Positions 34,800 to 49,618 of a stretch of DNA of 64,000 bases are shown here, in pieces. How positions within the stretch are numbered: position 1 is the stretch's first letter; every line of letters begins with the position of its first letter. The notes beneath the pieces were generated by a model. That model saw only the letters and a program-made list of their open reading frames with translations. It was not told the DNA's origin and made no database searches. The stretch comes from Deltaproteobacteria bacterium. GTDB lineage: Bacteria; Myxococcota; Kuafuiibacteriia; Kuafuiibacteriales; Kuafuiibacteriaceae. Position numbers and translations under genes: made by a program. The stretch spans positions 64,001-128,000 of the forward strand of contig JAVJQW010000057.1 of the NCBI GenBank assembly GCA_040218735.1, given 5' to 3'.

Positions 34800-34807
34800 T
34801 CACCTGA

Positions 34808-35854
34808 CTAGCGCTTGGCCTTCCGCCCCTGGATCCGCGTGCGCACCTCGCCGTGGACGAGGTCCAGGACGTTGTCGCTCCGCAGGAAGTCGTTCGGGAA
34901 CAACAGCGGCGCCTCGCTGAGCGCGTCGAGCTTCGCGACGTGCTCCGGCGTGAGCTCGACGTCGACGCAGCCGAGGGAGTCGGTGATCTGCTCGACCTTC
35001 CGCGCGCCGACGATCGGGATGTAGCGGTAGCCGCGGCTCCGCACCCACGCGAGCGCGACCTGCGCGGACGTCTTGCCGAGCTCGTCGGCGGTCGCGTCGA
35101 CGGCGCGGGCGATCGTCAGGTTCTTCTCCGAAGTACGGCCGCGCGCTTCGTTCGAGCCCTTCCTCAACGAGTCGACGTCCGTGCCCCGGGTGTATTTGCC
35201 GGTGAGCACGCCGCCGCCGAGGGGGCCCCACGCGACGACGGAGAGATCGAAGTGGTCACTCATCGCGAGGAGCTCTTGCTCCACCGTGCGCTGCAGCAGG
35301 CTGTACTCGATCTGCAGGCCGACGTACTGCGTCCAGCCGCGCAGCTCCGCGAGGACGTTGCTCGCCGAGACGACCCATGCCGGCGTGTCACTCACGCCGA
35401 CGTAGAGGACCTTGCCCGAGCGCACGAGATCGTCGAGCCCGCGCATCGTCTCCTCGAACGGGGTGTACGGATCCCAGGCGTGCACCCACAGCAGATCGAT
35501 GTAGTCGGTGCGCAGCCGCTTCAAGCTCCCCTCGACCGCGCGCACCAGGTTCTTGCGCTGGTTGCCGGCGCTGTTCGGGTCAGCGTGGTCCATCGCGAGG
35601 GTGTACTTCGTCGCGACGACCTGGCCGTCCCGCTTGCCCTCGAGCCACCGGCCCACGATCTCTTCGGTCTCGCCGTTGTGGTACTTGTTCGCGGTGTCGA
35701 GGAAGTTGCCGCCCGCCTCGGCGTAGGCGTCGAGGACGGCGTGGCTGGTCTTCTCGTCCGCGCCGAAGCCCCAGTCTTCGCCGAAGCTCATCGTGCCGAG
35801 GCAGACCTCGCTGACGCGGAGGCCGGATTTTCCAAGGAGTCGATAGTCGAGCAT
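34808..35854 (-). CDS. Aldo/keto reductase
   Basis: GLRVSEVCLGTM, NFLDTANKY, SLKRLRTDYIDL, WGPLGGG, PIVGAR. Confidence 0.95.
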   Translation of the reverse strand: MLDYRLLGKSGLRVSEVCLGTMSFGEDWGFGADEKTSHAVLDAYAEAGGNFLDTANKYHNGETEEIVGRWLEGKRDGQVVATKYTLAMDHADPNSAGNQRKNLVRAVEGSLKRLRTDYIDLLWVHAWDPYTPFEETMRGLDDLVRSGKVLYVGVSDTPAWVVSASNVLAELRGWTQYVGLQIEYSLLQRTVEQELLAMSDHFDLSVVAWGPLGGGVLTGKYTRGTDVDSLRKGSNEARGRTSEKNLTIARAVDATADELGKTSAQVALAWVRSRGYRYIPIVGARKVEQITDSLGCVDVELTPEHVAKLDALSEAPLLFPNDFLRSDNVLDLVHGEVRTRIQGRKAKR

Positions 35855-36050
35855 CGGCCCCTCGAATCACCTCGCGGGGGGCCGTGCAACCCGGACCGCG
35901 CGTGCGTCCGGCCGACCGGACCGCGGTCTCGTTTCCGACGGGACAAACGGCCGCTTCGAGCGGGGTCGGCGCGGATCCGATCCGGGGGCGGCGTCGTAAC
36001 GTGACTGGACGAACCGTCGTAGTCCACCTTACCTTGGAGTACCTTCCCTG

Positions 36051-38063
36051 ATGAGCTCGTCGATCCAGCCCCAGCAGCCCCGTGTCCCCATTCCGGCCGT
36101 CGAGCTGAAGCCGATCGAGCCGCCGTCGAACAGCGTGGTGCAGGCTGCGGTGTCGGCGCCGGGCTTCGGGCCGGTCGTTTTCGCGCACACCGCCGAGGCG
36201 CAGTCGGTGCGGTCGACGCTGTACGGAGTCGGGCAGCAGATCGCCGGTGCGATCCGCGGCGCGAACGATCTGGGCGGGAAGACCTCGTACACCCAAGTGC
36301 TGAGCCGGCTGCGCAGCCTCGAGAAGGCGTTCAGCTCGAACGCGCTCTCCGGGGCCTGGTTGCAAGGCACGTTGACGCACGAGGAGCAGTGGGCGACCGG
36401 CCTCGACTTCGGTCGGTCGCTCCGCGCGCTGTCGCAAGCCATGGCGGGGGCGATGGACAAGCTGACCCCCGCGCAGCAGACGGAGATCGAAGCGCAGTTC
36501 AAGAGCCTTCGCTCCGCGATGGCGGACGGCGTCGGTGCGCTGCCGAGCGTCCGGCTCCCGCCGCCGCTCGCGACGACGAACGCCCAGGGGATGCGGCTCG
36601 AGACCAACGACGTCGAGCTGCTGAAGTTCGCGGCTTCGGTGCCGAAGGAGCTGTCGCCGATCCTGCAGGAGATCCTGCACGCGAACCCGGGTGACCCGAT
36701 GAACGTGCTCGATATCCTCGCGGCGAAGGACGAGCCGCTGGTGGAGCTGAAGCGCCTCGCGCTGATGTTCGGCCCGGGCGACGCCAAGGAGCTGCGCGCG
36801 AACCTGAGCGGCGACCTCGGCTACCGCGGCGCGACGATCGAGTCGGACGCCAAGTCGCTGCTCGACGGCTTCGGCGTGAAGGACACGGAGCCGCTCTTCG
36901 ACATGTACGCGACCGCGCGTGAGGCGTTCAAACGTGGCGCGGCGGGTGCGGAGGGTGTCGACGGCAACTCGATGGATCAGCCGGGCTGGATCCACACCCG
37001 CCTCGAGATGCCGCACAGCATGGAGAGCCTCGGCGTGGTGCAAGACGCCTTGCCGGCGGATCAGCAGAGCGCGGTGAATTGGCCGCGCCTCGCGAAGTCG
37101 GTGTGGTTGGGGACGCTCGGGTCCGACCTGTTCAAGAAGCAGGGGCTGCAGAGCGTGCTGACCCACAACCGCGACGGCGCGGAGCTGATGGTGCCGCTGC
37201 TCGCGGCGCGACACCTCGGTGACCTCGACGAGCCGGAGAACCACGTCGTCGTGAGCCAGGGGAAGCGGTTCGCGCACGACCACCAGATCATGCCGGCGGA
37301 CATGATGGCGATGATCGCGAACCTCGAGTACGGCTTCGGTCGTGAGGACACCGCGTCGCTCCGCGCGAAGATCGCGGACCCGTTCGCGGCGCCGAGCAAG
37401 AACGGCGAGCTGATCTTCGACGACGCGGAGCAAGCTCTGTTGCGCGAGAAGGGCATCTCGGGCTGGGCGGTGCCGTCGGCCGAGGGTGACATCGAGCGCC
37501 TCGTCGGTGGCCTCGCGGTCATCCTCGGCGACGCGATGCAGTACGGCAGCTCCGACGCCGGCTACAAGTACGCGGTGTCGCTGCGCGGGCCGGACACGTT
37601 CCTTCACAACCCGATCATCTCCTCGCGTGCGTTCGAGCAGCTCCACCCCGACCGGATGGGTGAGCTGGAGGCGGGGGCGAGCATCGAGGACCAGCGCGGC
37701 GGGCTCGAGTCCGCGTTCGACGGGAGCCACGCCGACTGCATCGCGACGTTGAAGAAGGGTGAGTCGGTGTTCGGCGCGCACCTCGCGAACGCGGCGGCGC
37801 AGCACCTCGACCAGGCGCGGGAGCGGTTCGCCGCGCGCATCCCCGAGGTGACGAAGTTCGTGGACGAGCGCGTCCGCGCGCAGACCGGGGATCGGCCGGT
37901 GCACTACTGGGACACGTTGGTCCCGCCGGTGCCGAAGGGTGAAAAGCTCGCGCCCGAGGTCGAGGCCGATGTGAAGCTGGTGAAGGAGGCATTCGCGGCG
38001 GCGATCGACGAGCTGTTCCAGGTGCCGCCGAAGCCGTTCGAGCTGGAAGGGAGCGCGAAGTGA
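36051..38063 (+). CDS. Hypothetical protein, possible degenerate HD-superfamily domain
   Basis: PHS...GSDLFK...THNRDGA...HDH...GDAMQ pattern; Pro/Gln-rich N-terminus; no signal peptide. Confidence 0.7.
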   Translation: MSSSIQPQQPRVPIPAVELKPIEPPSNSVVQAAVSAPGFGPVVFAHTAEAQSVRSTLYGVGQQIAGAIRGANDLGGKTSYTQVLSRLRSLEKAFSSNALSGAWLQGTLTHEEQWATGLDFGRSLRALSQAMAGAMDKLTPAQQTEIEAQFKSLRSAMADGVGALPSVRLPPPLATTNAQGMRLETNDVELLKFAASVPKELSPILQEILHANPGDPMNVLDILAAKDEPLVELKRLALMFGPGDAKELRANLSGDLGYRGATIESDAKSLLDGFGVKDTEPLFDMYATAREAFKRGAAGAEGVDGNSMDQPGWIHTRLEMPHSMESLGVVQDALPADQQSAVNWPRLAKSVWLGTLGSDLFKKQGLQSVLTHNRDGAELMVPLLAARHLGDLDEPENHVVVSQGKRFAHDHQIMPADMMAMIANLEYGFGREDTASLRAKIADPFAAPSKNGELIFDDAEQALLREKGISGWAVPSAEGDIERLVGGLAVILGDAMQYGSSDAGYKYAVSLRGPDTFLHNPIISSRAFEQLHPDRMGELEAGASIEDQRGGLESAFDGSHADCIATLKKGESVFGAHLANAAAQHLDQARERFAARIPEVTKFVDERVRAQTGDRPVHYWDTLVPPVPKGEKLAPEVEADVKLVKEAFAAAIDELFQVPPKPFELEGSAK

Positions 38064-38230
38064 TGACGAACCTCGAAGAACTCACGACCGAAGAGCTGAG
38101 GACGAAGCAAGAGGTGTTGTCGTCCGCAGGCACGCAGGCGGCGGCGCACGGCGTCGAGTTGCCCGAGACCGCGCGCGACGAGTACGATCGCATTACGGCG
38201 GAGCTGTTGCGGCGGAGAGCCGCGAGCTGA
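38063..38230 (+). CDS. 55-aa small helical protein (below the ORF-track cutoff)
   Basis: TGATG overlap with the upstream stop, GGGAG RBS; MTNLEELTTEELRTKQEVL...ELLRRRAAS. Confidence 0.65.
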   Translation: MTNLEELTTEELRTKQEVLSSAGTQAAAHGVELPETARDEYDRITAELLRRRAAS

Positions 38231-38288
38231 ACGAATTCCGGAGGCGTTCGCCTTGACCGCGTGAAGTCGGCTTCGCCAACGTGAACGT

Positions 38289-38591
38289 ATGGCCGACGAG
38301 CTGACGACGCAGATCCTCATCGAGATCCGCGACGCGACCCGCGCGACGAACGAGCGCCTGGACCGCGCCGTGGAGCGCCTGGACGGGCGCCTCGACGAGA
38401 CGAACCAGCGTCTGGATCAGACCAACGAGCGCCTGGGTATCCTCGCCAAGCTCACGCAGAGCATCGACGGCCGCCTCGAGAAGATCGAGGCGCGCGAGCC
38501 CGACCGGCTCTTCCTCCCGCGCCGCGTCGACCGCCTCGAAGCCGACCGCGACGATCACGAGGCCCGGCTCGCTGCGCTCGAGCGCGGTTGA
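38289..38591 (+). CDS. Small coiled-coil protein
   Basis: Heptad repeats TNERLDR/AVERLDG/TNQRLDQ/TNERL. Confidence 0.75.
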   Translation: MADELTTQILIEIRDATRATNERLDRAVERLDGRLDETNQRLDQTNERLGILAKLTQSIDGRLEKIEAREPDRLFLPRRVDRLEADRDDHEARLAALERG

Positions 38592-38633
38592 ACGCTTGCC
38601 TCCCGCGATCGGCGGACATAGCCTCCGCCGCCG

Positions 38634-38888
38634 ATGAACACCCGTACCCTCTTCGTCCTCGGCCTGTTCGGCGCCACTTTGGCCTGCGCCTCCCTCGACT
38701 CCGCCGCGAACAGCGGATCCGACATGGCCAAGAAGAACCTCGGTCACACGGACACGGCGACGAAGGCCGCCGTCGTCGACGAGAAGAAGGAAGCCGCCGA
38801 CATGGAGAAGGCCGCCGAGTCCGGGATGGAGAACGCCGAGGAGACGACCGAGGCGGAGACCGAGGCCGGCGCCGACAGCGGCGAATGA
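38634..38888 (+). CDS. Small acidic lipoprotein
   Basis: Signal peptide with lipobox TLAC; Glu/Ala-rich tail. Confidence 0.7.
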   Translation: MNTRTLFVLGLFGATLACASLDSAANSGSDMAKKNLGHTDTATKAAVVDEKKEAADMEKAAESGMENAEETTEAETEAGADSGE

Positions 38889-38998
38889 ATCGGGAGCCCC
38901 CTTACTCCTCCTGAATTCTCGGAGCGTGGGGCGCGGCGCAATTCGCGCCTACCGAGTTTCGGTGACGATCGCGCATCCCTGCGCTACAACCTCCTTCG

Positions 38999-41185
38999 AT
39001 GAAGCCATCGATCCGCGGGTTCCTCGCGTGGGCGATGGCTCGCGCGATCGAGCGACCCGGCCTCGCGTTCGCGGGGCTCGCGGGGATCATCGTCCAGGTC
39101 GCGTGCTCCCTCGCGATGCCGCTGACGATGGAGTACCTGATCGACGACGTCATCCCGACGCAGGACTACGGGGCGCTCGCCGTCGCCGTGGGGATCGTCG
39201 CCGCCGCCACCCTCTCCTACTTCCTCGGCGGCCTCACCGTGGACTACACGACCTCGCGCCTCGCGGCGGCGATCGTTGGTGATGTCCGCCTGACGATGTT
39301 CCGCCGGGTGCAGACCGCGCCGGCGTCGTTCTTCGCGACGCACAGCGAAGGGGAGATCGTCACCCGCTTCGGCACCGACGCGATCACGATCGAGACCACG
39401 ATCATCCGCGCCCTCCCCGTCGCGATTCGCCGGTTCCTGAAGATCATCTGCGCCGGCGTGATCCTCTTCTCGATGGAGTGGCGCGTCGCGCTCCTAGTGT
39501 TCGCCGCGCTCCCGTTCACCATCCTCTTGTCGCGCCCGTTCGGGAAACGCGGCACCGCCGCCGACATCGAGCGCAAGGACGGCGAAGGCGAAGTCACGAA
39601 GCTCGTGCAAGAGAGCTTCGCTTCCCACATGGTCGTGCGCGCGTTCGAGCTCGAGGCGCACCTGGCGGATCGCTTCGGCGCCGCGCTCGAACACGTGCGC
39701 GCGACGAGCGCGCGGAGCAACATGCTCTACGCGACGACCGGGTCCGTCAGCTCCCTCGGCATCGCGGTCCTCGAGCTCGCGGTGATGGGGACGGGCGCGC
39801 TGGTCGTGGTCGGAGGCGGCATGACCGTCGGGCTCCTCGTCGCGTTCCTCGGACTGTTCCGCAACGTCTCGGCGGCCGCGCGCGGGCTGACCGAGATGAT
39901 GCCCACGCTCCTCAACGGGGCGACGAGCCTCGCGCGCACGTCGGACCTCCTCGCGCTCGTTCCCCCGGGCGTCGACGAGGGCGGAACGAAGCCGCTCGGC
40001 CCGCTCGCGAACGCCATCCGCTTCGAACGCGTGGACTTCGCATACGCGACGAGCAACGCCAGCGGTTCGAGCCCGCTCACCCTCGCCGGCGTCGAGCTGG
40101 AGCTCCCGGCCAAACGGCGCGTCGCTTTCGTGGGGCGCTCCGGGTCCGGCAAGTCGACGACGCTGTCGCTGTTGATGCGGCTGCAGGCGCCGACCGCCGG
40201 CCGCATCACGTACGACGGCGTCGACCTCGACGAAGCGCGCCCCTCCAGCCTCCGCGCGCAGACCGCGGTGGTCCTCCAGGACACCGGGCTGTTCGACGCG
40301 ACCATCCGCGAGAACATCCGGTGCGGTCGGCTCGACGCCGACACCGAGGCGATCGAACGTGCGGCGAAGCGCGCGCGCATCCACGACGTCATCGAGAGCT
40401 TCGAAGACGGCTACGACACGATCGTCGGCGCGCGTGGCGCACGACTCTCCGGCGGACAACGCCAACGTGTCGCCATCGCGCGCGCGCTCGTGCGTGACCC
40501 CTCGCTCCTCCTCCTCGACGAGGCGACCTCCGCGCTCGACCCCGCCGCGGAGGCCGAGGTGAACGACACCATCCGCGACGCGTGCGACGGCCAGACCGTG
40601 GTCGCCGTGACCCACCGTCTCAACTCGGTCGTCGACTACGACCTGATCGTGGTCTTCGACGGCGGGCGCGTCGTCGAGCGCGGCACACACCAGGAGCTCC
40701 TCGAATCCGGCGGCGTCTACGCGGACCTGTGGCAGAAACAGAGCGGCTTCGTCGTCAAACCCGACGGCAGCGACGCGCGCGTCAGCGCAGAGCGCCTGGA
40801 GCTGATCCCCTTCCTCGCGTCGGCGCCGCTGGAGGCGCTCCAGATCCTCGCCGACGATCTCCGCACCGCGCGCTTCGCTGCCGGCGAGGTCGTGTTCGAG
40901 GCCGGCGACCCCGGCGACCGCTTCTTCCTCATCGCGCGCGGACGCCTGGAGGCCTACCTGGGCGAAGGCGACGAAGCGCGCATCCTCAGCGTCATGGAGG
41001 ACGGTGACTTCTTCGGCGAGATCGCGCTCGTCGAAGCCGGCGTGCGCACCGCATCGGTGCGCGCGGTGACCGACAGCCTGTGCCTCACGCTCACGCGCGC
41101 GAAATTCGAGCGCCTCCTCGCCGAGCACCCGGCGCTGTCGCGTGAGGTGCTTCAGACCGCGCAGCGGCGACTCGCCAACGGGTAG
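38999..41185 (+). CDS. ABC exporter (TMD plus NBD) fused to a C-terminal cyclic-nucleotide-binding domain
   Basis: TM domain; Walker A GRSGSGKST, LSGGQRQR, LLLDEATSALD; C-terminal GDPGDRFFLI...FGEIAL...RTASVRA. Confidence 0.92.
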   Translation: MKPSIRGFLAWAMARAIERPGLAFAGLAGIIVQVACSLAMPLTMEYLIDDVIPTQDYGALAVAVGIVAAATLSYFLGGLTVDYTTSRLAAAIVGDVRLTMFRRVQTAPASFFATHSEGEIVTRFGTDAITIETTIIRALPVAIRRFLKIICAGVILFSMEWRVALLVFAALPFTILLSRPFGKRGTAADIERKDGEGEVTKLVQESFASHMVVRAFELEAHLADRFGAALEHVRATSARSNMLYATTGSVSSLGIAVLELAVMGTGALVVVGGGMTVGLLVAFLGLFRNVSAAARGLTEMMPTLLNGATSLARTSDLLALVPPGVDEGGTKPLGPLANAIRFERVDFAYATSNASGSSPLTLAGVELELPAKRRVAFVGRSGSGKSTTLSLLMRLQAPTAGRITYDGVDLDEARPSSLRAQTAVVLQDTGLFDATIRENIRCGRLDADTEAIERAAKRARIHDVIESFEDGYDTIVGARGARLSGGQRQRVAIARALVRDPSLLLLDEATSALDPAAEAEVNDTIRDACDGQTVVAVTHRLNSVVDYDLIVVFDGGRVVERGTHQELLESGGVYADLWQKQSGFVVKPDGSDARVSAERLELIPFLASAPLEALQILADDLRTARFAAGEVVFEAGDPGDRFFLIARGRLEAYLGEGDEARILSVMEDGDFFGEIALVEAGVRTASVRAVTDSLCLTLTRAKFERLLAEHPALSREVLQTAQRRLANG

Positions 41186-41191
41186 GAGGGA

Positions 41192-41677
41192 TCAGCGCCG
41201 GAGCGCGGCGCGGATCTCGGCTTCGCTCGCCTGCAGCGACAGCGAGAGCAGGACGCCGTTGAGGCGCTGAACGTCCTTCGCGAGCTGACGCGCGACCGCG
41301 AGCTGGAACCGTCGCGACGCGGGGACACCGCTCTTCGCGAGGATGTCGAAAGCCGCCTTGCGGAGCGTGGCCGCGCGGACCGGCTCCATCGCGGTGCAGG
41401 TCGCCGTGCGGCGGCCGCCGTCGATGAGCGAGACCAACCCGAACAGCTGCCCGGGCCCGAGCTCGCCGAGGCGATCGACGCTGTCGCCTCGGCGCTGCGT
41501 GACCGCGACGCGGCCGGAGAGGATCAGGTACGCCTCGTGGCCCTTGTCGCCCTCCTCGGAGAAGACGTGGCCGGCGGGGTGGTTCGCGACCTCGAGGAGC
41601 GGCGCGAGCGCCGAGAGCTCCTCGGTCGAGAAGTCGGCGAGCAGCTCGCTCGCGACGAGCAGATCGTAGTCCTTCAC
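41192..41677 (-). CDS. Stand-alone cyclic-nucleotide-binding domain protein
   Basis: GTGA overlap with the upstream stop; EGDKG..AYLILSGRV...GQLFGLVSLIDGGRRTATC; no HTH. Confidence 0.85.
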   Translation of the reverse strand: MKDYDLLVASELLADFSTEELSALAPLLEVANHPAGHVFSEEGDKGHEAYLILSGRVAVTQRRGDSVDRLGELGPGQLFGLVSLIDGGRRTATCTAMEPVRAATLRKAAFDILAKSGVPASRRFQLAVARQLAKDVQRLNGVLLSLSLQASEAEIRAALRR

Positions 41678-42204
41678 GACGACGCGCCTCCCAGGAGCCG
41701 ACCGAACAGGCGGGTGACCCAGCCTTCGGACGGCGCTTCGTCGGCGGGCGCCTCGACGTGCACGGCGCCGTCTTCGCCCACGCCGAGCGTCGGCAGCCGC
41801 GCGGTGCGCAGGCGCGCCGCGAGCCGGGCGGAGAGCCCGGTGAGGAGCGCCGAGGCGGCGACGGGGTTGTCGGTCATCAGCGCTTCGAGGCCCGCGGCGT
41901 CGAGGGTCCACAGCGCGGTGTCGGCTTCGGCGGTGAGCGTCGTCGTCGACGGTCCGGGCTGCAGCAAGTCGACCTCGCCGACCCAGTCGCCCGGCTCGAC
42001 CGGCGGGAGCACGACGGTGCGCCCCTCCCGCTCGAGCGAGACCGTGAGCCGCCCGGACTCCACGAGGCACAGCATCGACGTGTCGGCGTTCGCGGCGACG
42101 ACCACCGCGCCCGCGGCGAAGGTCTGGCGCGTCAGGCTCGCCGCGACGGCGTCACGCTCGGCGCCGCTCGCGTTCGGCAACAGACGGTCGAGCTGCACGC
42201 TCAT
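41674..42204 (-). CDS. Stand-alone cyclic-nucleotide-binding domain protein (degenerate phosphate-binding cassette)
   Basis: LCLVESGRL...PGDWVGEVDLLQPGPSTTTLTA; conserved Arg missing; no HTH. Confidence 0.8.
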   Translation of the reverse strand: MSVQLDRLLPNASGAERDAVAASLTRQTFAAGAVVVAANADTSMLCLVESGRLTVSLEREGRTVVLPPVEPGDWVGEVDLLQPGPSTTTLTAEADTALWTLDAAGLEALMTDNPVAASALLTGLSARLAARLRTARLPTLGVGEDGAVHVEAPADEAPSEGWVTRLFGRLLGGASS

Positions 42205-42238
42205 CGGCGGCGACCCTAGTACAGTTGGTCGGCATCGG

Positions 42239-43003
42239 CTACAGCGCGAAGCGCTGGCCGGGGCGCGCGAAGCCGAGGAAGCCGTCCGCCGCGGCGTCCG
42301 GCAACGCGCCGGGTGGATAGCCGTACAGCCAAGTCTTCGCGCGCACGTTCTTGGGGAGCTCTTCGACGAGCGTCGCGTACGTAGGGTGCGCCCCGGTCGG
42401 AGGCCCGCTCGTCTCGCAGTCGTGGAGCACGACGTCAGCCGTGTCGAACGCATCGTGCCACGCGTAGACGGTGTCGGTGGTGAGGAACACGGAGCGCTCG
42501 GCGCCGGTGATGAACAGCCCGTAGCTCGTGATCGTCCCCGCCGAGCCGATGATGTGCGGCGTCGGCACGAGCGACAGCTCGACGCCGTCCCACGTGAACG
42601 ACCCGCGCTCCGCGAGCGGCGCGAGCTCGAAGTACGTCGACAGCGTGCCCTCGGCGCCCACGGTGTGGCGCATGCCGCCGGACAGCACGTTGTTCCACAT
42701 CGGCTCGATGAGCGGTTCGGCCGCGAAGAGTGTGAGGCGCGGCGCCGAAGGATCGAAGTGCGTCGTGAAGCCGAGCCACTCGAGCCCGCCCGCGTGGTCC
42801 GCGTGAAGGTGGCTGATGTAGACCGCTTCGAGATCACGCGCGTGGACGCCGCGCACGAAGAGCGCGCGCCGGACGTCGCCGCCGCAGTCGACGAGGAGCC
42901 GCCGCCCGCTCGCGCCGGTGAGGAGGAGGTTCGACTGGTAGTTGTCGGGGTCCGTGGTGAACGCGGAGCCGGTACCGAGGAACTCGAGCGTCGGTGAGGT
43001 CAT
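42239..43003 (-). CDS. MBL-fold metallohydrolase, Apyc1-like cyclic nucleotide phosphodiesterase
   Basis: FLGTGSAF, LLVDCG, SHLHADHAGGLE, TPH, SYGL, TTD, HDCET, GAH; ATGA overlap with the cyclase stop. Confidence 0.85.
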   Translation of the reverse strand: MTSPTLEFLGTGSAFTTDPDNYQSNLLLTGASGRRLLVDCGGDVRRALFVRGVHARDLEAVYISHLHADHAGGLEWLGFTTHFDPSAPRLTLFAAEPLIEPMWNNVLSGGMRHTVGAEGTLSTYFELAPLAERGSFTWDGVELSLVPTPHIIGSAGTITSYGLFITGAERSVFLTTDTVYAWHDAFDTADVVLHDCETSGPPTGAHPTYATLVEELPKNVRAKTWLYGYPPGALPDAAADGFLGFARPGQRFAL

Positions 43004-44697
43004 TTGGTCTCCAGCTTCAGTACGGCCGGCGCCGTCGGATCCGTCTTTGCGCGTTCGACGTTCCGGGCGAGGAGACGCGACGGACCGTCATGGTCGGGCA
43101 ACGTCTCCAATACACGCTCTGCCTCCGCATAGTCTCCCGCTCCGAACGCATCGATCGCCGTTTCGTAGAGATCCCGCGTCGGTCCCCACTCCGCGGCCGA
43201 CCGCAGCTCGTACAGCTCGATCGGATCGTCGACCCCCACCACCTGCGTCGCGCCGACGTGACGCGTCGAAAGCTCCGTCACCGACGCGTAGAGCGTCGCC
43301 TGCGACAACAGGATCGCGACCCCCGCGTGTTTCGTCGCGCCCTCGATCCGGCTCGCGAGGTTCACCGTGTGCCCGCGCGGCCCATACTTCTGACGCATCT
43401 TGCTCCCGGCGTTGCCCACGAGCGCGGACCCCGTGTGGAGGCCGACGCCGATCGACAGCGGCGTGCCGATTCGATCGCGCCAGGTCGTGTCGAGCGCCGC
43501 GACGTCGTCGACCATCGCGAGCGCGGCGTGGCAGGCCCGCCCCGCCGGGTCGTCCTGGGGGAGCGGCGCGTTCCACATCGCGGCCATGCCGTCGCCGTAG
43601 TAATCGATCACCACGCCGCCCGCCTCGTGCACGCGCGCGGTGAGCGCGTCCATCACCTCGCCGACGAGCGCGAAGATCTGCGTGGGGTCGAGCCGCTCGG
43701 ACAGACGCGTGAAGCCGCGGAGGTCCGTGAACAGGACGGTGATGGTGCGCTCCGCCGGCTCGAGCATCGTGGGGTCGCGCTCGAGCTCGCGGACCAGCTT
43801 CGGCGAGAAGACCCGCTCGAACTGCACGCGCAGCCGCCCGGCCTCCGCTTCGCGTTCCATGCGCGCGAGCCCCGCGGACACCGCCGCCGCGAGGACCTGG
43901 ACGACCTGCGCTTCGAGCGGCTCGACCGCCGGCAGGTGCACCCCCGGCTTTCGATCGCGCGCACCGAAGACCGCACCGATCGGCTCACCGCCCGCGCCGA
44001 AGATCGGAGACGCGACGAACGCGTCGACCGCGACGAGGCTCGCCGCCGCTTGGTTCGGCCGGTGGTAGACGGTCTGCTGCGTGCGGAGCACTTCGTTCAG
44101 GACGGTCTGGCTGAAGGCTTCACCGGACGCACCGTCGGCGGCGTGCGCGGCGGCGACCTTCCACGCACCGTCGTCCTGGAGCAGGACCAGCCCGCGGTCG
44201 AGGCCGATCAGATCGACGATCGCGCGTGCCGTCTCGGCGTAGAACGCCGCCGACCCCGCCGCCGCGCGCTGCACCGACAGCAACGTCTGGAACCACTCCG
44301 CGAGGCGCTCCACGGTCGGCGCGCGTTCGAGGGTCTTCGGCGACGCCGCGCGCACGATCGTCCGCAGCACCATCGAACCCTCGGACTGTTCCGGCAGCTC
44401 GGTCGCGTAGATCTCGATCTTCGTGCCGCCCGCGAGCACGGTGGCGGGGAGCGCGAACGTCCCGCTCTCGCCGGTCGCGAGCGCGCCCTGCGCTTCGATC
44501 GTCAGGGTTGCGCCGTGATTGGTGAGGCGGACGCCACCTTCCGCTTCTTCGACGGTGAGCTGCACGCGCGAAACACGCGGATCACGCACGACGAAACAAC
44601 GACCCGCACCGACGGGAGCGCGCCCCAGGAGGAGGGGCCCGTCGTCGTGGCGGAACGTCTGGACCTGCTCGACGTTGCTGACGGTCAGCTCCAGCAC
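43000..44697 (-). CDS. FHA-GAF-class III nucleotidyl cyclase
   Basis: FHA-like GR...SRVQ; GAF (FSQTVL, ASPIF); cyclase FTDLRGFT, YYGDG, GLHTG, GHTVNLASRIE. Confidence 0.93.
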   Translation of the reverse strand: MLELTVSNVEQVQTFRHDDGPLLLGRAPVGAGRCFVVRDPRVSRVQLTVEEAEGGVRLTNHGATLTIEAQGALATGESGTFALPATVLAGGTKIEIYATELPEQSEGSMVLRTIVRAASPKTLERAPTVERLAEWFQTLLSVQRAAAGSAAFYAETARAIVDLIGLDRGLVLLQDDGAWKVAAAHAADGASGEAFSQTVLNEVLRTQQTVYHRPNQAAASLVAVDAFVASPIFGAGGEPIGAVFGARDRKPGVHLPAVEPLEAQVVQVLAAAVSAGLARMEREAEAGRLRVQFERVFSPKLVRELERDPTMLEPAERTITVLFTDLRGFTRLSERLDPTQIFALVGEVMDALTARVHEAGGVVIDYYGDGMAAMWNAPLPQDDPAGRACHAALAMVDDVAALDTTWRDRIGTPLSIGVGLHTGSALVGNAGSKMRQKYGPRGHTVNLASRIEGATKHAGVAILLSQATLYASVTELSTRHVGATQVVGVDDPIELYELRSAAEWGPTRDLYETAIDAFGAGDYAEAERVLETLPDHDGPSRLLARNVERAKTDPTAPAVLKLETK

Positions 44698-44826
44698 ACT
44701 TCAGACCTACTGCGGCGGGCCCTCGCGCGCAAAGTGCGCCTGATTCCGTACTTCGGCGGGGCAGGTGCGTTTTTAGGCGCCAAAAAATGGCGGCTTCCCC
44801 CGAACGACGCTACGACGCCCGGCGTC

Positions 44827-45213
44827 ATGAATGGACTCGAGACGAACGGACTGCCGCTCCTCGTCGGCGCGGCCCTGCTTCTCGCCTGGGCAGCCACGGC
44901 GATCTTCGTGACGCGGACGTCCTCGCTGCGAACGAGCGCGCGTTACCTGCACGCGGTGCTGAGCTTCCCCGTCGCGCTGCTGCTCCTCCCGCTGGTCGCG
45001 TGGGGCGCGGCGACGATCGCGCCGCACCTGGAGCCGATGCTCCTCGCGCAGCCCGCGTTGATCGCGTCGATGTCGGTCGGCGGCCGCTCCTTCCTCACGG
45101 AGACCCTCGCCATCGGCCTCGCCGGCGCGCTCCCGGCGCTCCTCTTCTGGCGCTACTGCCGCTTCATCGAACACCGCGAGGCGCGCACGCTCGAACGGCT
45201 CCGCACCGAGTAG
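44827..45213 (+). CDS. Small membrane protein
   Basis: About 3 TM helices; divergent from the cyclase. Confidence 0.65.
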   Translation: MNGLETNGLPLLVGAALLLAWAATAIFVTRTSSLRTSARYLHAVLSFPVALLLLPLVAWGAATIAPHLEPMLLAQPALIASMSVGGRSFLTETLAIGLAGALPALLFWRYCRFIEHREARTLERLRTE

Positions 45214-45338
45214 CGCGTTCGAAAAGTCCGAACGAAACTCCGAAAATCGGACGCCGCATTCGGTTTTCGGACGAACGCCCGCACGCAGGGCGAAAACCTG
45301 CGGATGTCGTTGGCCCGTCGCGTGCTCTTACGCCGGGC

Positions 45339-45770
45339 ATGATGAACCTCGATTCGTTTTCCGCTCGCCCGCCGCGCGATCGTGATGTGTTTGCAAAAGC
45401 ACACCTCGATCGCCTCGCGGGGGAGTTCATCCGCACCACCCTTCAACGCCTGCCGGGGACACGCGAAGGCACCGTCATGTCGCCCGGCCCCAAACCCTAC
45501 CGACGCCTCGACTGCGACGGGCGGGCCCTCGTCTACATTCGGTCGCGGCCGCGCAAGGGCGCGGTGCGCGTCGACGTCTCCGGGCTGTGGGCCGTCCCGC
45601 GCACGCACCCGCTGTGGAGCGCGACGGCGAGCGGGAGCGCCACGCTGTTCCTCGAACGTAAGGAGGACCTCGCCGGCGCGGTCGAGTTCCTCGGGCAAGC
45701 GATACGCATGACCCGAGAGGCGGAGGCGGCACAACGCGCCCGCAAGAGACACGTGCGCGCGGTGGAGTGA
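45339..45770 (+). CDS. Hypothetical protein
   Basis: About 143 aa ORF with a globular alpha/beta pattern (YRRLDCDGRALVYIRSRP). Confidence 0.65.
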   Translation: MMNLDSFSARPPRDRDVFAKAHLDRLAGEFIRTTLQRLPGTREGTVMSPGPKPYRRLDCDGRALVYIRSRPRKGAVRVDVSGLWAVPRTHPLWSATASGSATLFLERKEDLAGAVEFLGQAIRMTREAEAAQRARKRHVRAVE

Positions 45771-45791
45771 CGGTGCGTTCGATTCCGTCCG

Positions 45792-45814
45792 CCGCGCCGG
45801 TTCGCCCGGCGCGG
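45792..45814 (+). terminator. GC-rich hairpin downstream of the 45339-45770 gene
   Basis: ccgcgccgg-ttcgc-ccggcgcgg; no clear U-tract. Confidence 0.3.
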
Positions 45815-45869
45815 TGTGCGGGCGAACGTTCCCTTGACCGGTCACGCACCGGGCGAAAGAACACGCGCC

Positions 45870-46841
45870 GTGGGCGCGGACCTCATCACGGGCGCGAGCG
45901 GCTTCATCGGGCGGCACCTCAAGGGGACCTTGCTCGAAGGGGGCCGCGACGTCGTCGCGATCTGCCGTCCCTCGTCGCCCGAGCCCGAGGCCGGCCGGTC
46001 GGTGCGGGTCGACTACGCCGACGTGGACGCGCTGACGGAGGTGATGAAGACCGAGCGACCGGAGCGGATCTTCCACGTCGCGGGCGCGACGAAGGGCGTC
46101 ACCTACGACGACTTCCGGCGCGCCAACGTGATGCCGACCGAGAACCTCGTCGCGGCGCTCGCGCGCGCCGAGCACACGCCGCGGCGCTTCGTGCTGGTTT
46201 CTTCGCTCGCCGCGTACGGCCCCTCGTCGGAGGAACGCCCGAAGCAAGAGTCGGACGAACCCACGCCGATCGAGCACTACGGCAAGAGCAAGCTCGAAGC
46301 CGAGCAGGTCCTGGCTGCGGCGAACATCCCGTACACGATCCTCCGCCCGGGCGGCGTCTACGGCCCGGGCGACGTCGACTACTTCGAGCTGTTCAAGCAG
46401 GCCGAGAAGGGCTGGTCGGTGTTCTTCGGCAACCGCGACCGCTGGTTCTCGGGGGTGTACGTCGACGACCTCGTGGAGGCGACGCTCGTCGCGGCGGACC
46501 ACGACAAGGCCGTCGACCGCGGCTACTTCATCTGCGACGGCGTCCCGATCACCTGGCAGTCGTTCCAGCGCACGATCTCGGAGGTCAGCGGCAAGAAGGT
46601 CCGCGAGCTCGACCTCCCCGAGGCGCTCGTCTCGATCGCCGCGTGGGGCGGCGAGCTGCTGTCGTCGATCGACAAGAAGCCGCGCCTCTTCAACCGACAG
46701 AAGGCCTTGATGGGCAAACAGATCGCGTGGACCTGCACGCACAAACGCGCGCGCGAGGACTTCGGCTACGTGCCGAAGGTCGACGTCGAAGCGGGCGCAC
46801 GCCTCGCCCTCGATTGGTACCGCGACAACGGATGGGTTTGA
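45870..46841 (+). CDS. NAD-dependent epimerase/dehydratase (extended SDR; candidate ceramide reductase CerR)
   Basis: ITGASGFIG, VSSLAA, YGKSK, RPGGVYGPGD. Confidence 0.85.
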   Translation: MGADLITGASGFIGRHLKGTLLEGGRDVVAICRPSSPEPEAGRSVRVDYADVDALTEVMKTERPERIFHVAGATKGVTYDDFRRANVMPTENLVAALARAEHTPRRFVLVSSLAAYGPSSEERPKQESDEPTPIEHYGKSKLEAEQVLAAANIPYTILRPGGVYGPGDVDYFELFKQAEKGWSVFFGNRDRWFSGVYVDDLVEATLVAADHDKAVDRGYFICDGVPITWQSFQRTISEVSGKKVRELDLPEALVSIAAWGGELLSSIDKKPRLFNRQKALMGKQIAWTCTHKRAREDFGYVPKVDVEAGARLALDWYRDNGWV

Positions 46842-46845
46842 ACGA

Positions 46846-48150
46846 ATGGTGACGACCGTGAAGCAAGAAGACTCCGGCATCGAGAGCCCCGAAGCGCTCC
46901 GCCGCCGACTGGCCGAGCTCGGCGGCGACGCCGAGGACGCCTACCAGTTCGGCGCCCCGCCCGAGGATCTGCCGAGCCTCGAGCCGGCCGTCCCCACGCG
47001 CGTGACCGACGCGCCGGGCGTCCGCATCGAGGAGGTCAACCTGCGCGACAAGAAGGCCCGCGCACGTTTCATCGACATGCCCGAGCCGCTCTACGTGGGC
47101 GACCCGAACTACATCGCGCCGCTGAGGATGCACCTGATGCGCTTCCTCAACCCGTACGCGAACCCGGCGTTCAAGAACCTCGAGGTGCGCGCCATCCTCG
47201 CTTACCAGGACGGCAAGTGTGTCGGTCGCATGACGATGCAGATCGATCGCGCCTACGACGCGTACCACGAGACGAAGGCGGGCTTCTTCGGGTTCTTCGA
47301 GTGCGTGAACGACAAGAAGGTCGCGCACAAGATGTTCGACGACGCGGTCGCGTGGCTGAAGGAACGCGGCGCGCGTGAGTGGTACGGGCCGATGAACCTG
47401 ACCACGAACCACCAGGCGGGGCTCCTCGTGGAGAACTTCGACCGGCCGCCGTTCATCGAAGAGGGTTACAACCCGAGCTTCTACGAGGAGCTGTTCACGT
47501 CGTACGGCTTCGGCAAGGCGAAGGACCTGCTGGTGTGGTGGATCGAGGTCTCCAACGGGATGGAGACCAAGAACCGCAAGCGCGTCAAACGCATCGCGGA
47601 GCGGATCATGAAGCGCGAGGGGGTGGTGTTCCGCAACATCGACCTCGCGGACGCCGACGGTGAGATCGACCGGATGTTCGAGCTCTACCTGAAGGCCTGG
47701 CAGAAGAACTGGGGCTTCGTGCCGCTCAGCAAGGAAGAGTTCACGTGGCTCGCGCAGGACCTCAAGCAGGTCGCGATCCCGGAGCTCGTGTTGTTCGTCG
47801 AGCTCGACGGCAAACCGGTCGGCTTCTGCGCGACGCTGCCGAACGTGAACGAGGTGCTCCCGAAGGACGGCAAGCTGTTCCCGTTCGCGTGGATCAAGCT
47901 CCTCGGCGGACGCATCAAGAAGACGAAGCACGCGCGCCTCTACACGCTGGGGATGTTGCCCGAGTATCGAAAGCGCGGGCTCGAAGCGATGATGTTCTCG
48001 GAGACGCTCGAGCGCGCGCAGCGCATCGGCATCAGCGCCGGGGAGATCGGTTGGACGCTCGACGACAACACGCTGATCAACCGGGCGATCGAATCGATGG
48101 ACGGCTACGTCGACCGCCGGTACCGCATCCTCGGCATCAACCTGGACTGA
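46846..48150 (+). CDS. YghO-like GNAT acyltransferase (candidate bacterial ceramide synthase bCerS)
   Basis: DPNYIAPL, GFFGFFEC, GPMN, GLLVENF, YNP, NWGFVP, PNVNE, LGMLPEYRKRGL, WTLDDN. Confidence 0.82.
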   Translation: MVTTVKQEDSGIESPEALRRRLAELGGDAEDAYQFGAPPEDLPSLEPAVPTRVTDAPGVRIEEVNLRDKKARARFIDMPEPLYVGDPNYIAPLRMHLMRFLNPYANPAFKNLEVRAILAYQDGKCVGRMTMQIDRAYDAYHETKAGFFGFFECVNDKKVAHKMFDDAVAWLKERGAREWYGPMNLTTNHQAGLLVENFDRPPFIEEGYNPSFYEELFTSYGFGKAKDLLVWWIEVSNGMETKNRKRVKRIAERIMKREGVVFRNIDLADADGEIDRMFELYLKAWQKNWGFVPLSKEEFTWLAQDLKQVAIPELVLFVELDGKPVGFCATLPNVNEVLPKDGKLFPFAWIKLLGGRIKKTKHARLYTLGMLPEYRKRGLEAMMFSETLERAQRIGISAGEIGWTLDDNTLINRAIESMDGYVDRRYRILGINLD

Positions 48151-48154
48151 CGGC

Positions 48155-49618
48155 GTGAGCAAGTCCGCCACGCCCTCCGAGGCCGCCTCGATCCTCCTCA
48201 CGACGGCGGACGGGACCGTGCTCGTCGGGCAGCGCGCCCGGTCCATCCCGTTCCTCGGGAGCTACCTGTCGTTCCCGGGCGGCCGCGTCGAGGACGAGGA
48301 CCACGCGCTCGCCGCGCGGCTCTTCCCGGGTGACCCGCTCGCCGTCCGCAAGATCGCCGGGCTGCGGGAGCTGGAGGAAGAGACGGGGCTCACGGTCGAC
48401 GGGCCGCACGCCGTTCGCGCGGAGGGGGACTTCGCAACGCGTCTTGCGAACGTCGACCTGTCGCGCTTCGTCCCCGCGGGGCGCTGGGTCACGCCGGACT
48501 ACTCCCCCGTCCGCTACGACACGCACTTCTTCCAGTACGTCGTCGACGACTTCGACGAACCGACCGTCGGCGTCGAGAGCCCCGAGTTCGAGTGGCTCCG
48601 CTTCGAGCCCGCGGACAAGCTCGTGCGGGAGTGGTACGCGCTGCAACACCTGCTGTCGCCGCCCGCGCTCGTCGCGCTCGAGTGCCTGCAGTACGGCGCC
48701 GCCGAGGCGCCGCGCCGAATCCTGCAGCACCCCGGCGCGCGCGCCGAAGACCACCACGAGTTCGAGGCGCTCCCCGACGTCCGCATCTACGCGTTGCGCA
48801 CGCCGACGCTCCCGCCGGCGGAGACGACCAACGCCGTCGCGATCGGACGCGAGCGGATCCTCGTCGTCGACCCCGCGACGTACGACGACGACGAACGCGA
48901 CAAGCTCCTCGTCCACCTCGAAGCGCTCACGGCGCGCGGCGCGACGATCGAGGCGATCGTCCTGACGCACCACCACTTCGATCACGTCGGCGCCGCCAAG
49001 TGGCTCGCGCCGCGCGTGGGCGCGCCGGTCATCGCGCACGCCATCACGAAGGAGCTCCTCGGCGACAAGATCCGCATCGACGCGACGATCGAGGAGGGCC
49101 ACGTCTTCGACCTCGGCACCGACCGCCGCGGTGAGCCGTTCACGGTCGAGGTCCTGCACACGCCGGGTCACGCACCCGGGCACGTCGTGCTCGTCGACCG
49201 GCGCCCCGGCGCGCGCCTCATGATCGTCGGCGACATGGTCGCGGCGATCGGCACGATCATCGTGGACCCGCCCGAGGGCAACATGGCCGAGTACCTGCGA
49301 CAGCTCGAACGGCTCGCGGCGATGGACGAGTCGATCCTCATCCCGGCGCACGGCCCGCCGATCGTCGAGGGGCGCCGACACCTGAAGCGGTACGTCGCGC
49401 ACCGGCGCATGCGCGAGAGCAAGGTCGTCGCCGCGCTCGAACACCACGGCCGAGGCTCGGCGTCGGAGCTGCTCGACGTCGCGTACGACGACACGCCCAA
49501 ACACCTGTACCCGCTCGCGGCGCGTTCCTGCCTCGCGCACCTCGAGAAGCTCGTCGAGGATGGTCGCGCGATACGCGAGGGGGACCGCTTTCGCCTCGCG
49601 AGCGATTCCGGCGCATAA
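48155..49618 (+). CDS. NUDIX - MBL-fold (LACTB2-like) fusion hydrolase with C-terminal winged helix
   Basis: FPGGRVE...RELEEETG; THHHFDHVG, TPGHAPGH, GDM, PAHG, AHLEKL. Confidence 0.88.
   Translation: MSKSATPSEAASILLTTADGTVLVGQRARSIPFLGSYLSFPGGRVEDEDHALAARLFPGDPLAVRKIAGLRELEEETGLTVDGPHAVRAEGDFATRLANVDLSRFVPAGRWVTPDYSPVRYDTHFFQYVVDDFDEPTVGVESPEFEWLRFEPADKLVREWYALQHLLSPPALVALECLQYGAAEAPRRILQHPGARAEDHHEFEALPDVRIYALRTPTLPPAETTNAVAIGRERILVVDPATYDDDERDKLLVHLEALTARGATIEAIVLTHHHFDHVGAAKWLAPRVGAPVIAHAITKELLGDKIRIDATIEEGHVFDLGTDRRGEPFTVEVLHTPGHAPGHVVLVDRRPGARLMIVGDMVAAIGTIIVDPPEGNMAEYLRQLERLAAMDESILIPAHGPPIVEGRRHLKRYVAHRRMRESKVVAALEHHGRGSASELLDVAYDDTPKHLYPLAARSCLAHLEKLVEDGRAIREGDRFRLASDSGA

Follow-up and report, generated by a model that had tools for sequence, protein, structure and literature searches.

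A conserved five-gene block in a Myxococcota genome is a candidate cyclic-mononucleotide signalling cassette with a predicted Apyc1-family phosphodiesterase

Pycsar (pyrimidine cyclase) antiphage systems combine a class III-type nucleotide cyclase with cyclic nucleotide-binding (CNB) proteins, and Apyc1 is the phage-encoded antagonist of this signalling. Apyc1 and its many bacterial homologues were found by Hobbs et al. 2022 (PMC9117128), who suggested, in the available part of that article, a regulation of Pycsar or of other cyclic mononucleotide (cNMP) signalling. According to the accessible text of Tesson et al. 2024 (PMC11724313), more than 80% of the Apyc1 homologues are located in the non-mobile chromosome, and that article already covers the pairing of a cyclase with Apyc1 as well as a housekeeping role of the bacterial Apyc1 proteins. 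Among ATP-binding cassette (ABC) exporters, HetC of Nostoc carries an N-terminal CNB domain, which was required in vivo and bound ppGpp, not cAMP, in vitro, as reported in the available portion of PMC10986499. The locus analysed in the present study combines a class III-type cyclase and CNB proteins, as Pycsar does, with an Apyc1 relative. It lies in the window, which is the whole stretch of 64,000 nucleotides that was analysed (positions 64,001 to 128,000 of contig JAVJQW010000057.1, assembly GCA_040218735.1, Deltaproteobacteria bacterium, phylum Myxococcota). Five adjacent genes occupy positions 38999–44697 of the window (5.7 kb): an ABC exporter gene on the forward strand, followed by the genes of two small CNB proteins (cNMP2 and cNMP1), a metallo-beta-lactamase (MBL) hydrolase and a class III cyclase, all on the reverse strand. 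With a probability of roughly 0.68, these genes can be read as a chromosomal, self-contained cyclic-mononucleotide second-messenger cassette which serves regulation and not phage defence.

That the convergent ABC gene is part of the unit is best supported by the comparison with another genome of the same genus (G001). The locus of this genome, L001, contains the best relative of the MBL protein in the one-genome-per-species contigs, and all five genes recur there in unchanged order and orientation, with protein identities of 79% (ABC), 81% (cNMP2), 66% (cNMP1), 72% (MBL) and 59% (cyclase). A tblastx comparison of window positions 34001–48000 with L001 revealed similarity confined to 38941–44700, with unrelated flanks on both sides. 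The conserved block ends at the start of the ABC gene, and the comparison indicates that the five genes are inherited as one block, from the ABC start to the cyclase start. The ABC and CNB genes are thus syntenic with the cyclase in this relative, and the block has exact boundaries, as expected from the first-pass annotation, which had described the five genes as a single module.

The G+C content of the window was approximately 70%, and genes were called by third-position G+C together with open reading frame (ORF) length. Direct reading of the junctions revealed overlaps of 4 nucleotides between the cyclase and MBL genes (ATGA) and between the cNMP1 and cNMP2 genes (GTGA). The earlier map of five genes with two 4-nucleotide overlaps and a 6-nucleotide convergent gap was therefore reproduced by the ORFs, the Pfam matches and the junction sequences (Table 1). 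Scans for promoter-like sites (0 found) and for terminator-like sites (5 found against 3.2 expected, none at the convergent junction 41186–41191) were uninformative at this G+C content. The genome of 11.6 Mb contained 7 class III cyclase domains, 51 cNMP-binding domain matches and 1 Apyc1-like gene. By a rough Poisson estimate, the probability of three CNB domains within 6 kb was approximately 3e-6. The presence of three reader (CNB) domains within 2.4 kb of a cyclase, together with the sole Apyc1-like MBL gene of the genome, is far beyond the expectation by chance.

Table 1. Positions of the cassette genes, their domains and the convergent junction in the window
Feature	Position	Strand	Description
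ABC exporter	38999..41185	+	728 aa; type-I half-transporter with 6-TM domain, ATPase and C-terminal cNMP-binding domain; proposed cassette output
cNMP-binding domain of ABC protein (residues 625-710)	40871..41128	+	canonical phosphate-binding cassette FGEIAL..RTAS
Convergent spacer separating the ABC and cNMP2 stop codons	41186..41191	.	6 nt, read directly
cNMP2	41192..41677	-	161 aa, GTG start; stand-alone cNMP-binding protein; phosphate-binding cassette GL..RRTAT; long C-terminal helix
cNMP1	41674..42204	-	176 aa; stand-alone CNB-fold protein; family with Arg-less phosphate-binding cassette
MBL hydrolase, Apyc1-family (class II) phosphodiesterase (predicted)	42239..43003	-	254 aa; PF23023; proposed eraser
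FHA-GAF-class III cyclase	43000..44697	-	565 aa; Asp365/Gly439 substrate pair; proposed writer
FHA domain (cyclase residues 1-100)	44398..44697	-	predicted fold matches FHA structures; no Pfam match
GAF domain (cyclase residues 153-275)	43873..44241	-	Pfam GAF 24 bits, cut-off 22.4
Cyclase catalytic domain (residues 317-496)	43210..43749	-	Pfam Guanylate_cyc PF00211, 63 bits; alignment to Cya2

The MBL protein was clearly placed by sequence comparison among the true members of the Apyc1 family, and it is predicted to be a cNMP phosphodiesterase, in agreement with the earlier label of an Apyc1-like phosphodiesterase. It matched the Pfam family Anti-Pycsar_Apyc1 (PF23023) over residues 6–224 with 77.3 bits, above the cut-off of 50. 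Its best sequence matches in the PDB were Apyc1 structures (7u2s, E = 1e-23, 87.5 bits; 7t28, 87.3 bits; 7u2r, 81.7 bits), while other MBL-fold structures scored lower, with at most 29 bits (approximately 1e-6) for RNase Z/ELAC2 and 23.9 bits (2e-4) for the YhfI-type 6kns. In an alignment of 20 sequences, all metal ligands were invariant, namely the HxHxDH motif (H65, H67, D69, H70), H150, D177 and H206; Glu75 was also invariant and aligned with a Glu of 7u2s. For Apyc1, Hobbs et al. describe a catalytic Glu and Tyr contributed by the opposing protomer, as well as an Apyc1-specific loop. The NCBIfam models gave weak RNase Z-type and 'cyclic nucleotide-degrading phosphodiesterase' matches, far below their cut-offs. 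More than 1,300 relatives, approximately 45–50% identical, could be found at E ≤ 1e-10, and the named ones belong to cyanobacteria, Legionella, Chlamydiae, Burkholderiales and Desulfovibrio.

The neighbourhood of the MBL family was evaluated in its 80 best loci from genome contigs (one genome per species), which were translated in all frames and searched with the window proteins. A class III cyclase was located within 1 kb of the MBL gene in 41 of the 80 loci, and in 33 of them it lay directly upstream on the same strand, as in the window. A CNB ORF was present within the same distance in 20 loci and either a cyclase or a CNB ORF in 51, the remaining 29 including several at contig ends. Up to 1 kb from the MBL gene, the density of cyclase ORFs was 0.276 per kb, and at greater distances in these loci it fell to 0.0046 per kb (60-fold); the corresponding values for CNB ORFs were 0.154 and 0.010 per kb (15-fold). 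The association of an Apyc1-like MBL with class III cyclases and CNB readers thus recurs across phyla. According to their pair of substrate-specifying residues, the partner cyclases were of the Glu/Gly type in 30 loci, Lys/Thr in 9 and Asp/Gly in 1 (L001), while the first position was unreadable in 1 (L037, with the cyclase in two pieces). The Glu/Gly loci were mostly labelled cyanobacterial, and the Lys/Thr partners occurred in proteobacteria and Chlamydiae. The readers beside the MBL gene varied by lineage and comprised CRP regulators, CNB-NTE/patatin, CNB-MscS, double-CNB and, in Thalassospira, ABC-CNB proteins. Taken together, these neighbourhoods suggest that the general pattern is a writer–eraser pair with exchangeable readers.

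Several of these loci deserve a separate description. In 30 loci within L002–L068 (for example L018:4499–7559 and L019:7578–11593), a Cya2-type cyclase of approximately 750 amino acids is followed by the MBL gene on the same strand, and a CNB protein often comes next (CNB-MscS in L008, double CNB in L031). As roughly half of the 80 loci have a class III cyclase next to the MBL gene, among them nearly all of the Cya2-type cyclases sampled, the MBL family is a candidate dedicated phosphodiesterase for the cGMP formed by Cya2 in cyanobacteria. This comparative result may be of wider use. The literature search found no paper linking Cya2 with a metallo-beta-lactamase, and a search on cGMP phosphodiesterase, MBL fold, cyclase and operon returned nothing relevant beyond Hobbs et al. 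In Burkholderiales and gammaproteobacteria (L005:6955–13426, L012, L020, L064 and L077), the MBL gene lies beside CRP-type regulators and CNB-NTE_Ploop-patatin proteins. In Thalassospira (L073:4183–8299 and L076:9932–14051), the gene of a 1,081-amino-acid ABC protein with a C-terminal CNB domain begins 35 nucleotides after the MBL gene; no cyclase could be found around these MBL genes, the full 10 kb on each side being covered only in L076. In an exploratory, midpoint-rooted FastTree tree of the MBL proteins, the window and L001 proteins grouped with these Thalassospira proteins with a support of 0.40, and no shared ancestry is claimed because of this low support.

The cyclase was recognised by Pfam through a Guanylate_cyc match and a GAF match barely over the cut-off (Table 1), the GAF region being strongly conserved among the members of the cyclase family. 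No Pfam FHA match was obtained at E ≤ 10 with residues 1–120 or with the whole protein. An AlphaFold2 model of residues 1–125, built from a family alignment of 27 rows, had a mean pLDDT of 86.9 and eleven strands. The Foldseek search of the PDB with this model returned 82 matches at E ≤ 0.001, of which those listed were FHA or FHA-like domains, and the top matches were all FHA (3poa, 3gqs, 3oun and MDC1; E from 2e-5, target TM 0.7–0.78). The phosphothreonine-binding motif of FHA domains consists of Arg, Ser and Asn, with a His usually following the Ser. Gly25, Arg26 and Ser43 were invariant in the cyclase family and Asn60 was invariant or nearly so; the residue after the Ser is Gln in the window cyclase, where His is usual. 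The predicted fold and the conserved motif residues confirm, at the level of a model, that the N-terminus is an FHA domain, which had been claimed in the first-pass annotation although it is unseen by Pfam. Among the papers listed by the literature search, none described an FHA-GAF-class III cyclase architecture.

The catalytic residues of the cyclase were intact, including the metal-binding Asp325 and Asp369 and the transition-state residues Asn446/Arg450. The substrate-specifying pair, Asp365/Gly439, corresponds neither to the adenylyl type (Lys/Asp or Lys/Thr) nor to the guanylyl type (Glu/Cys, Gly, Ser), so the earlier description of an atypical cyclase was appropriate. This pair is a family trait, and the signature D,D,D,G,N,R occurred in 111 of 121 sequences (the window cyclase and its 120 best database relatives). 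The FHA-GAF-cyclase family comprised more than 1,000 members of the same layout at E ≤ 1e-20, and the few source names given were Planctomycetota and Pirellulales. The closest solved catalytic domain was that of Synechocystis Cya2 (2w01, E = 4e-25). Cya2 has a Glu/Gly pair, and its Tyr boosts the use of GTP (as cited in PMC4215837, according to the available text). The window cyclase resembles Cya2 in having Gly at the second substrate position and an acidic residue at the first, so that its pair appears closer to the Glu/Gly of Cya2 than to the adenylyl pairs, and this likeness may point towards GTP. Nevertheless, the reading is weakened because Asp is shorter than Glu and the GTP-favouring Tyr of Cya2 is Ser in the window cyclase (NLTYR in Cya2, NLASR here). 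Cya2-type proteins further differ by a long, cyanobacterial N-terminus in place of FHA-GAF. Since the cyclase is atypical, a product other than cAMP is possible. As a guess from these residues, cGMP or a mixed purine product may be given an even chance, cAMP a distinctly smaller one and something else the smallest.

Among the two small CNB proteins, the Pfam cNMP_binding family matched cNMP2 with 62 bits and cNMP1 with 53 bits. The canonical CAP/PKA-type phosphate-binding cassette consists of Gly-Glu together with Arg-Thr/Ser-Ala. In cNMP2 (GL..RRTAT), the Arg is present and the usual Glu is replaced by Leu, while the corresponding segment of cNMP1 contains no phosphate-binding Arg (GEVDLLQPGPSTTT). 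The CNB domain of the ABC protein is thus the only one of the three with a fully canonical phosphate-binding cassette. The lack of Arg extends to the cNMP1 family of approximately 180 amino acids, as 0 of the 51 small homologues among the best 150 matches (1.8 billion representatives searched) had Arg in the canonical column. The earlier assignment of three readers therefore holds in that Pfam confirms three CNB domains, but not in full for cNMP1 with its missing canonical Arg. The NCBIfam model TIGR03896 (cut-off 161), which is taken here to be the two-CNB protein of NHLP-type bacteriocin export cassettes, was matched by both proteins in different halves, by cNMP1 in the first (profile 12–122, 23.2 bits) and by cNMP2 in the second (profile 165–271, 29.7 bits).

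The prediction of a cNMP1–cNMP2 complex gave an ipSAE of 0.85 in three of three runs, compared to 0.01 for the best of three controls. Among 80 solved complexes, 58 attained this mark, as did 2 of the 110 mismatched pairs; these counts hold only roughly, as own alignments were used. The runs shared at least 78% of contacts, the partner pLDDT was at least 80, and the interface was formed by the C-terminal helices and the phosphate-binding cassettes. The two proteins are thus predicted by modelling to form a heterodimer. Independent support for the pairing was provided by three of three other genomes of the phylum, which show the same succession of a cNMP1-like gene and, directly after it, a gene starting with a cNMP2-like CNB domain, in these genomes fused to an FAD-binding oxidase. 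In the respective loci (L181:4457–8970, L182:7185–11648 and L183:3473–7933), the gene of the Arg-less cNMP1-like protein is followed by that of a CNB + FAD_binding_4 protein, and two of the loci continue with an FAD/ALO oxidase that has a polyketide-cyclase-like domain. By their gene contexts, cNMP1-type proteins look like partners for a second CNB domain which are not tied to the Asp/Gly cyclase. The phylum-wide co-occurrence of the Asp/Gly cyclase and cNMP1 families was also considered and was uninformative, the full-length cyclase being present only in the window genome (G000) and G001 out of 401 genomes.

The ABC protein contained the Pfam domains ABC_membrane (26–288, 127 bits), ABC_tran (363–511, 116 bits) and cNMP_binding (78 bits). 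The ATPase motifs were complete, with the Walker A motif GRSGSGKST, the signature LSGGQ, the Walker B motif LLLLDE and the H-loop THR. The best NCBIfam similarity was MsbA-related and far below the cut-offs. The architecture ABC_membrane + ABC_tran + cNMP was present in approximately 100 of the 120 best matches to residues 560–728, as counted from the table of matches. A functional study of a CNB domain on an ABC exporter could be found in the literature search for one distant case alone, HetC. The pump of the cassette may be regulated by the nucleotide of the cassette.

In the proposed circuit, a phospho-threonine partner acting via the FHA domain and/or a ligand of the GAF domain would switch the cyclase on. 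The co-expressed phosphodiesterase would keep the signal brief and local, which would provide a private channel for one of the seven cyclases of the genome. cNMP2 and the Arg-less cNMP1 would act as one heterodimeric receptor joined through the C-helices, and the ABC half-transporter, as a dimer, would change its ATPase and transport rate once nucleotide is bound to its C-terminal CNB domains. In L001, a gene of the Ser/Thr kinase-FGE-sulfatase type adjoins the cyclase divergently, and this Ser/Thr kinase neighbour fits an FHA input. In a more specific version of the circuit, which is unlikely although worth stating, FHA-GAF Asp/Gly cyclases may make a nucleotide other than cAMP or cGMP, and the cassette would be its private channel, with the Apyc1-type enzyme, owing to its broad specificity, as the sole eraser able to clear the product and the cNMP1/cNMP2 heterodimer and the ABC CNB domain as dedicated receptors. 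The dedicated circuit put forward in the first-pass annotation can accordingly be kept in its writer–eraser–reader core, possibly not using cAMP, on the comparative evidence, and its analogy to Pycsar was left unsupported.

Several observations weigh against the regulatory cassette as proposed. All five proteins are known here from sequence and models alone. Of 61 related genomes, only two (G000 and G001) contained the MBL gene, and the 18 others from the same family had none at E ≤ 1e-20; such patchiness is also typical of accessory or defence modules. The full-length Asp/Gly cyclase was similarly restricted to 2 of the 401 genomes of the phylum (G000 and G001); 192 of the 401 genomes contained cyclases of approximately 800 amino acids matching the catalytic half of the family profile only (both tallies include G195), and all four that were examined (L169–L172, four genomes) carried Lys as the first substrate residue, with a CNB protein of approximately 220 amino acids encoded immediately downstream. 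Around the Asp/Gly cyclases of 80 metagenome loci, many of them on short contigs, an MBL-like neighbour was located within 1 kb in 2 loci and a CNB neighbour in 4, two of them weak. A second FHA-GAF-Asp/Gly cyclase, 62% identical, is encoded in the same genome (contig C55:49533–51185; L084, L088), with no MBL, CNB or ABC partner within 10 kb on either side. A general tie of the Asp/Gly cyclase family to MBL or CNB genes was therefore rejected, and since neighbours of these kinds are few and the paralogue stands alone, the family appears to work normally without the cassette, which would have recruited one member. In a further FastTree tree, the C55 paralogue grouped with the L001-type cyclases and not with the window copy. 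In addition, no kinase gene adjoins the window cyclase. Genes of the cNMP1 type are present in three genomes without a full-length Asp/Gly cyclase, which argues against cNMP1 as a receptor specific to the product of this cyclase. The ligand may be a different one for at least one of the readers, because cNMP1 is Arg-less and the CNB domain of HetC bound ppGpp, and the complex prediction, made for the hetero pair only, may pass through likeness to solved CRP-type CNB dimers. Finally, the Archangium violaceum homologue, the sole myxobacterial Apyc1 assayed in print, cleaved cNMPs weakly or not in vitro, according to the available text of PMC11724313.

The last observation also bears on the role of the MBL protein, which may not erase the cyclase product if it lacks activity on cNMPs or has another phosphodiester as its substrate, the adjacency then reflecting some other coupling. 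The weak NCBIfam matches far below the cut-offs would be compatible with this view. However, the PF23023 match was above the gathering score, Apyc1 structures led RNase Z/ELAC2 by 60 bits, none of the metal ligands varied, and cyclases were locally enriched 60-fold beside the family; moreover, other bacterial homologues located beside cyclases were active on all four cNMPs (PMC11724313, available text), so that a non-eraser role appears very unlikely. The extent of the unit can be questioned as well. It is conceivable, and quite unlikely, that the four reverse-strand genes alone form the unit and that the ABC-CNB protein answers independently to a general cAMP or cGMP pool. The ABC gene on the opposite strand represents a separate transcript, ABC exporters that end in a CNB domain occur widely in the absence of the cassette (423 matches at E ≤ 1e-5), and the 51 CNB domain matches of the genome point in the same direction. 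A contig of 71,428 bp seems to carry orthologues of the MBL and cyclase genes with no ABC-CNB among the matches listed, because of which the link of the ABC gene to the cassette may not be universal. On the other hand, the boundary of the block shared with L001 coincides exactly with the ABC start, between unrelated flanks, the ABC protein is among the best-conserved members of the cassette, and the MBL genes of Thalassospira precede a different ABC-CNB protein. Database relatives of the MBL protein (69%), the cyclase (57%) and the ABC-CNB protein (75% over the C-terminal part) were all listed with a longest contig of 11,054 bp. From this equal length, a single contig appears to carry the three genes and probably holds a third copy of the cassette.

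A Pycsar-like antiphage function, the frame of the first-pass annotation, was not borne out and has only a slight chance of being correct. In such a system, the cyclase would sense infection, the CNB-ABC protein or the small CNB proteins would serve as the membrane effector activated by the nucleotide, and the Apyc1-like enzyme would set a threshold or reset the alarm. The PADLOC models PycC, PycTIR and 'Effector' matched the cyclase and all three CNB domains at the domain level, Apyc1 represents the anti-Pycsar fold, the cassette is patchily distributed (2 of 61 relatives) and its flanks differ between two congeneric genomes, and some MBL loci elsewhere carry CNB-patatin proteins. However, the window cyclase scored 79 bits against the PycC model PDLC00734 compared to 71–112 bits for five other class III cyclases, none of them from a recognised Pycsar locus, and the PADLOC matches were rejected as Pycsar evidence because they are generic; the MBL protein received no PADLOC match. 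No TIR, short transmembrane (TM) or other toxic module is fused to any of the CNB domains, the third of which belongs to a complete exporter with every ATPase motif of a working transporter. Input domains such as FHA and GAF typically belong to cellular signalling. The cassette is surrounded by housekeeping genes, and the Pfam scans of these adjacent genes showed nothing of phage, integrase or defence type. The regulatory cassette is thus preferred to a defence system.

The surroundings of the cassette comprise ordinary metabolic and envelope genes, recognised by Pfam as PBP1, aldo-keto reductase, epimerase, GNAT, thiolase and citrate transporter genes. Upstream of the ABC gene (36051–38914, +), a 670-amino-acid protein without a Pfam match, a 100-amino-acid coiled-coil protein and an 84-amino-acid ORF with a lipoprotein-like signal peptide are encoded, and none of these genes is conserved beside the cassette in L001. 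Upstream of the cyclase (44800–45213, +), no Pfam-recognisable gene was present, and the translated frame has the look of a small membrane protein containing several hydrophobic helices. Another MBL protein, unrelated to that of the cassette, is encoded 3.5 kb away from it (48155–49618, +; 487 amino acids; NUDIX, Lactamase_B and a beta-lactamase-associated winged helix). Elsewhere, in the metagenome loci L124:4145–7600 and L135:7923–11308, an Asp/Gly cyclase is followed by a CNB-methyltransferase fusion, which represents another type of reader.

Each part of the cassette comes from a known family, and the 5.7 kb of clonable DNA packs three questions. One concerns the role of chromosomal Apyc1 homologues, for which the literature proposes cNMP regulation and names no circuit. 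Another is which nucleotide the large Asp/Gly cyclase family makes, and the third is the effect of a cNMP-binding domain on an ABC exporter, an architecture found in hundreds of proteins.

With regard to its input, the cyclase can be compared with DgcB of Bdellovibrio (6hc1/6hc0), which is presumably a GGDEF diguanylate cyclase and not a class III mononucleotide cyclase; from the entry titles, it likewise has an N-terminal FHA domain on a nucleotide cyclase, and this domain binds a phosphorylated peptide. The output side resembles HetC and the NHLP systems with TIGR03896, in which an ABC exporter is regulated via a CNB domain and a two-CNB accessory protein stands beside the exporter, with cNMP1 and cNMP2 mapping to the halves of TIGR03896. 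It differs from them in that the CNB domain of the window exporter is C-terminal and not N-terminal, a C39 peptidase domain is missing, and the two CNB domains are split into two genes. Pycsar is a two-gene operon with a CNB-TIR or CNB-short-TM effector, whereas the window cassette has five genes, FHA/GAF sensors and no such effector. The Apyc1 proteins that counteract Pycsar are encoded by phages or prophages, while the window MBL gene is chromosomal, in an operon with a cyclase and without phage-type neighbours in the Pfam scans. The literature search found no paper joining 'Apyc1' and 'cNMP-binding', and Supplementary Figure S8 of PMC11724313 may show similar loci. The closest relatives are the chromosomal Apyc1 homologues (PMC11724313 and PMC9117128, available parts), which share the PF23023 family, the non-mobile setting, the adjacent cyclase and a proposed cNMP regulation. 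The earlier view that this is not a described system must therefore be restricted, as the adjacency of a cyclase and Apyc1 has been published (PMC11724313). In the available text of these papers, however, this adjacency is occasional, 'with no obvious effector nearby', whereas the window holds a conserved block with three CNB readers, an ABC output and an Asp/Gly FHA-GAF cyclase. The less ordinary features of the cassette are the Asp/Gly cyclase family, the Arg-less cNMP1 predicted to dimerise with cNMP2, and a third reader fused to an ABC exporter.

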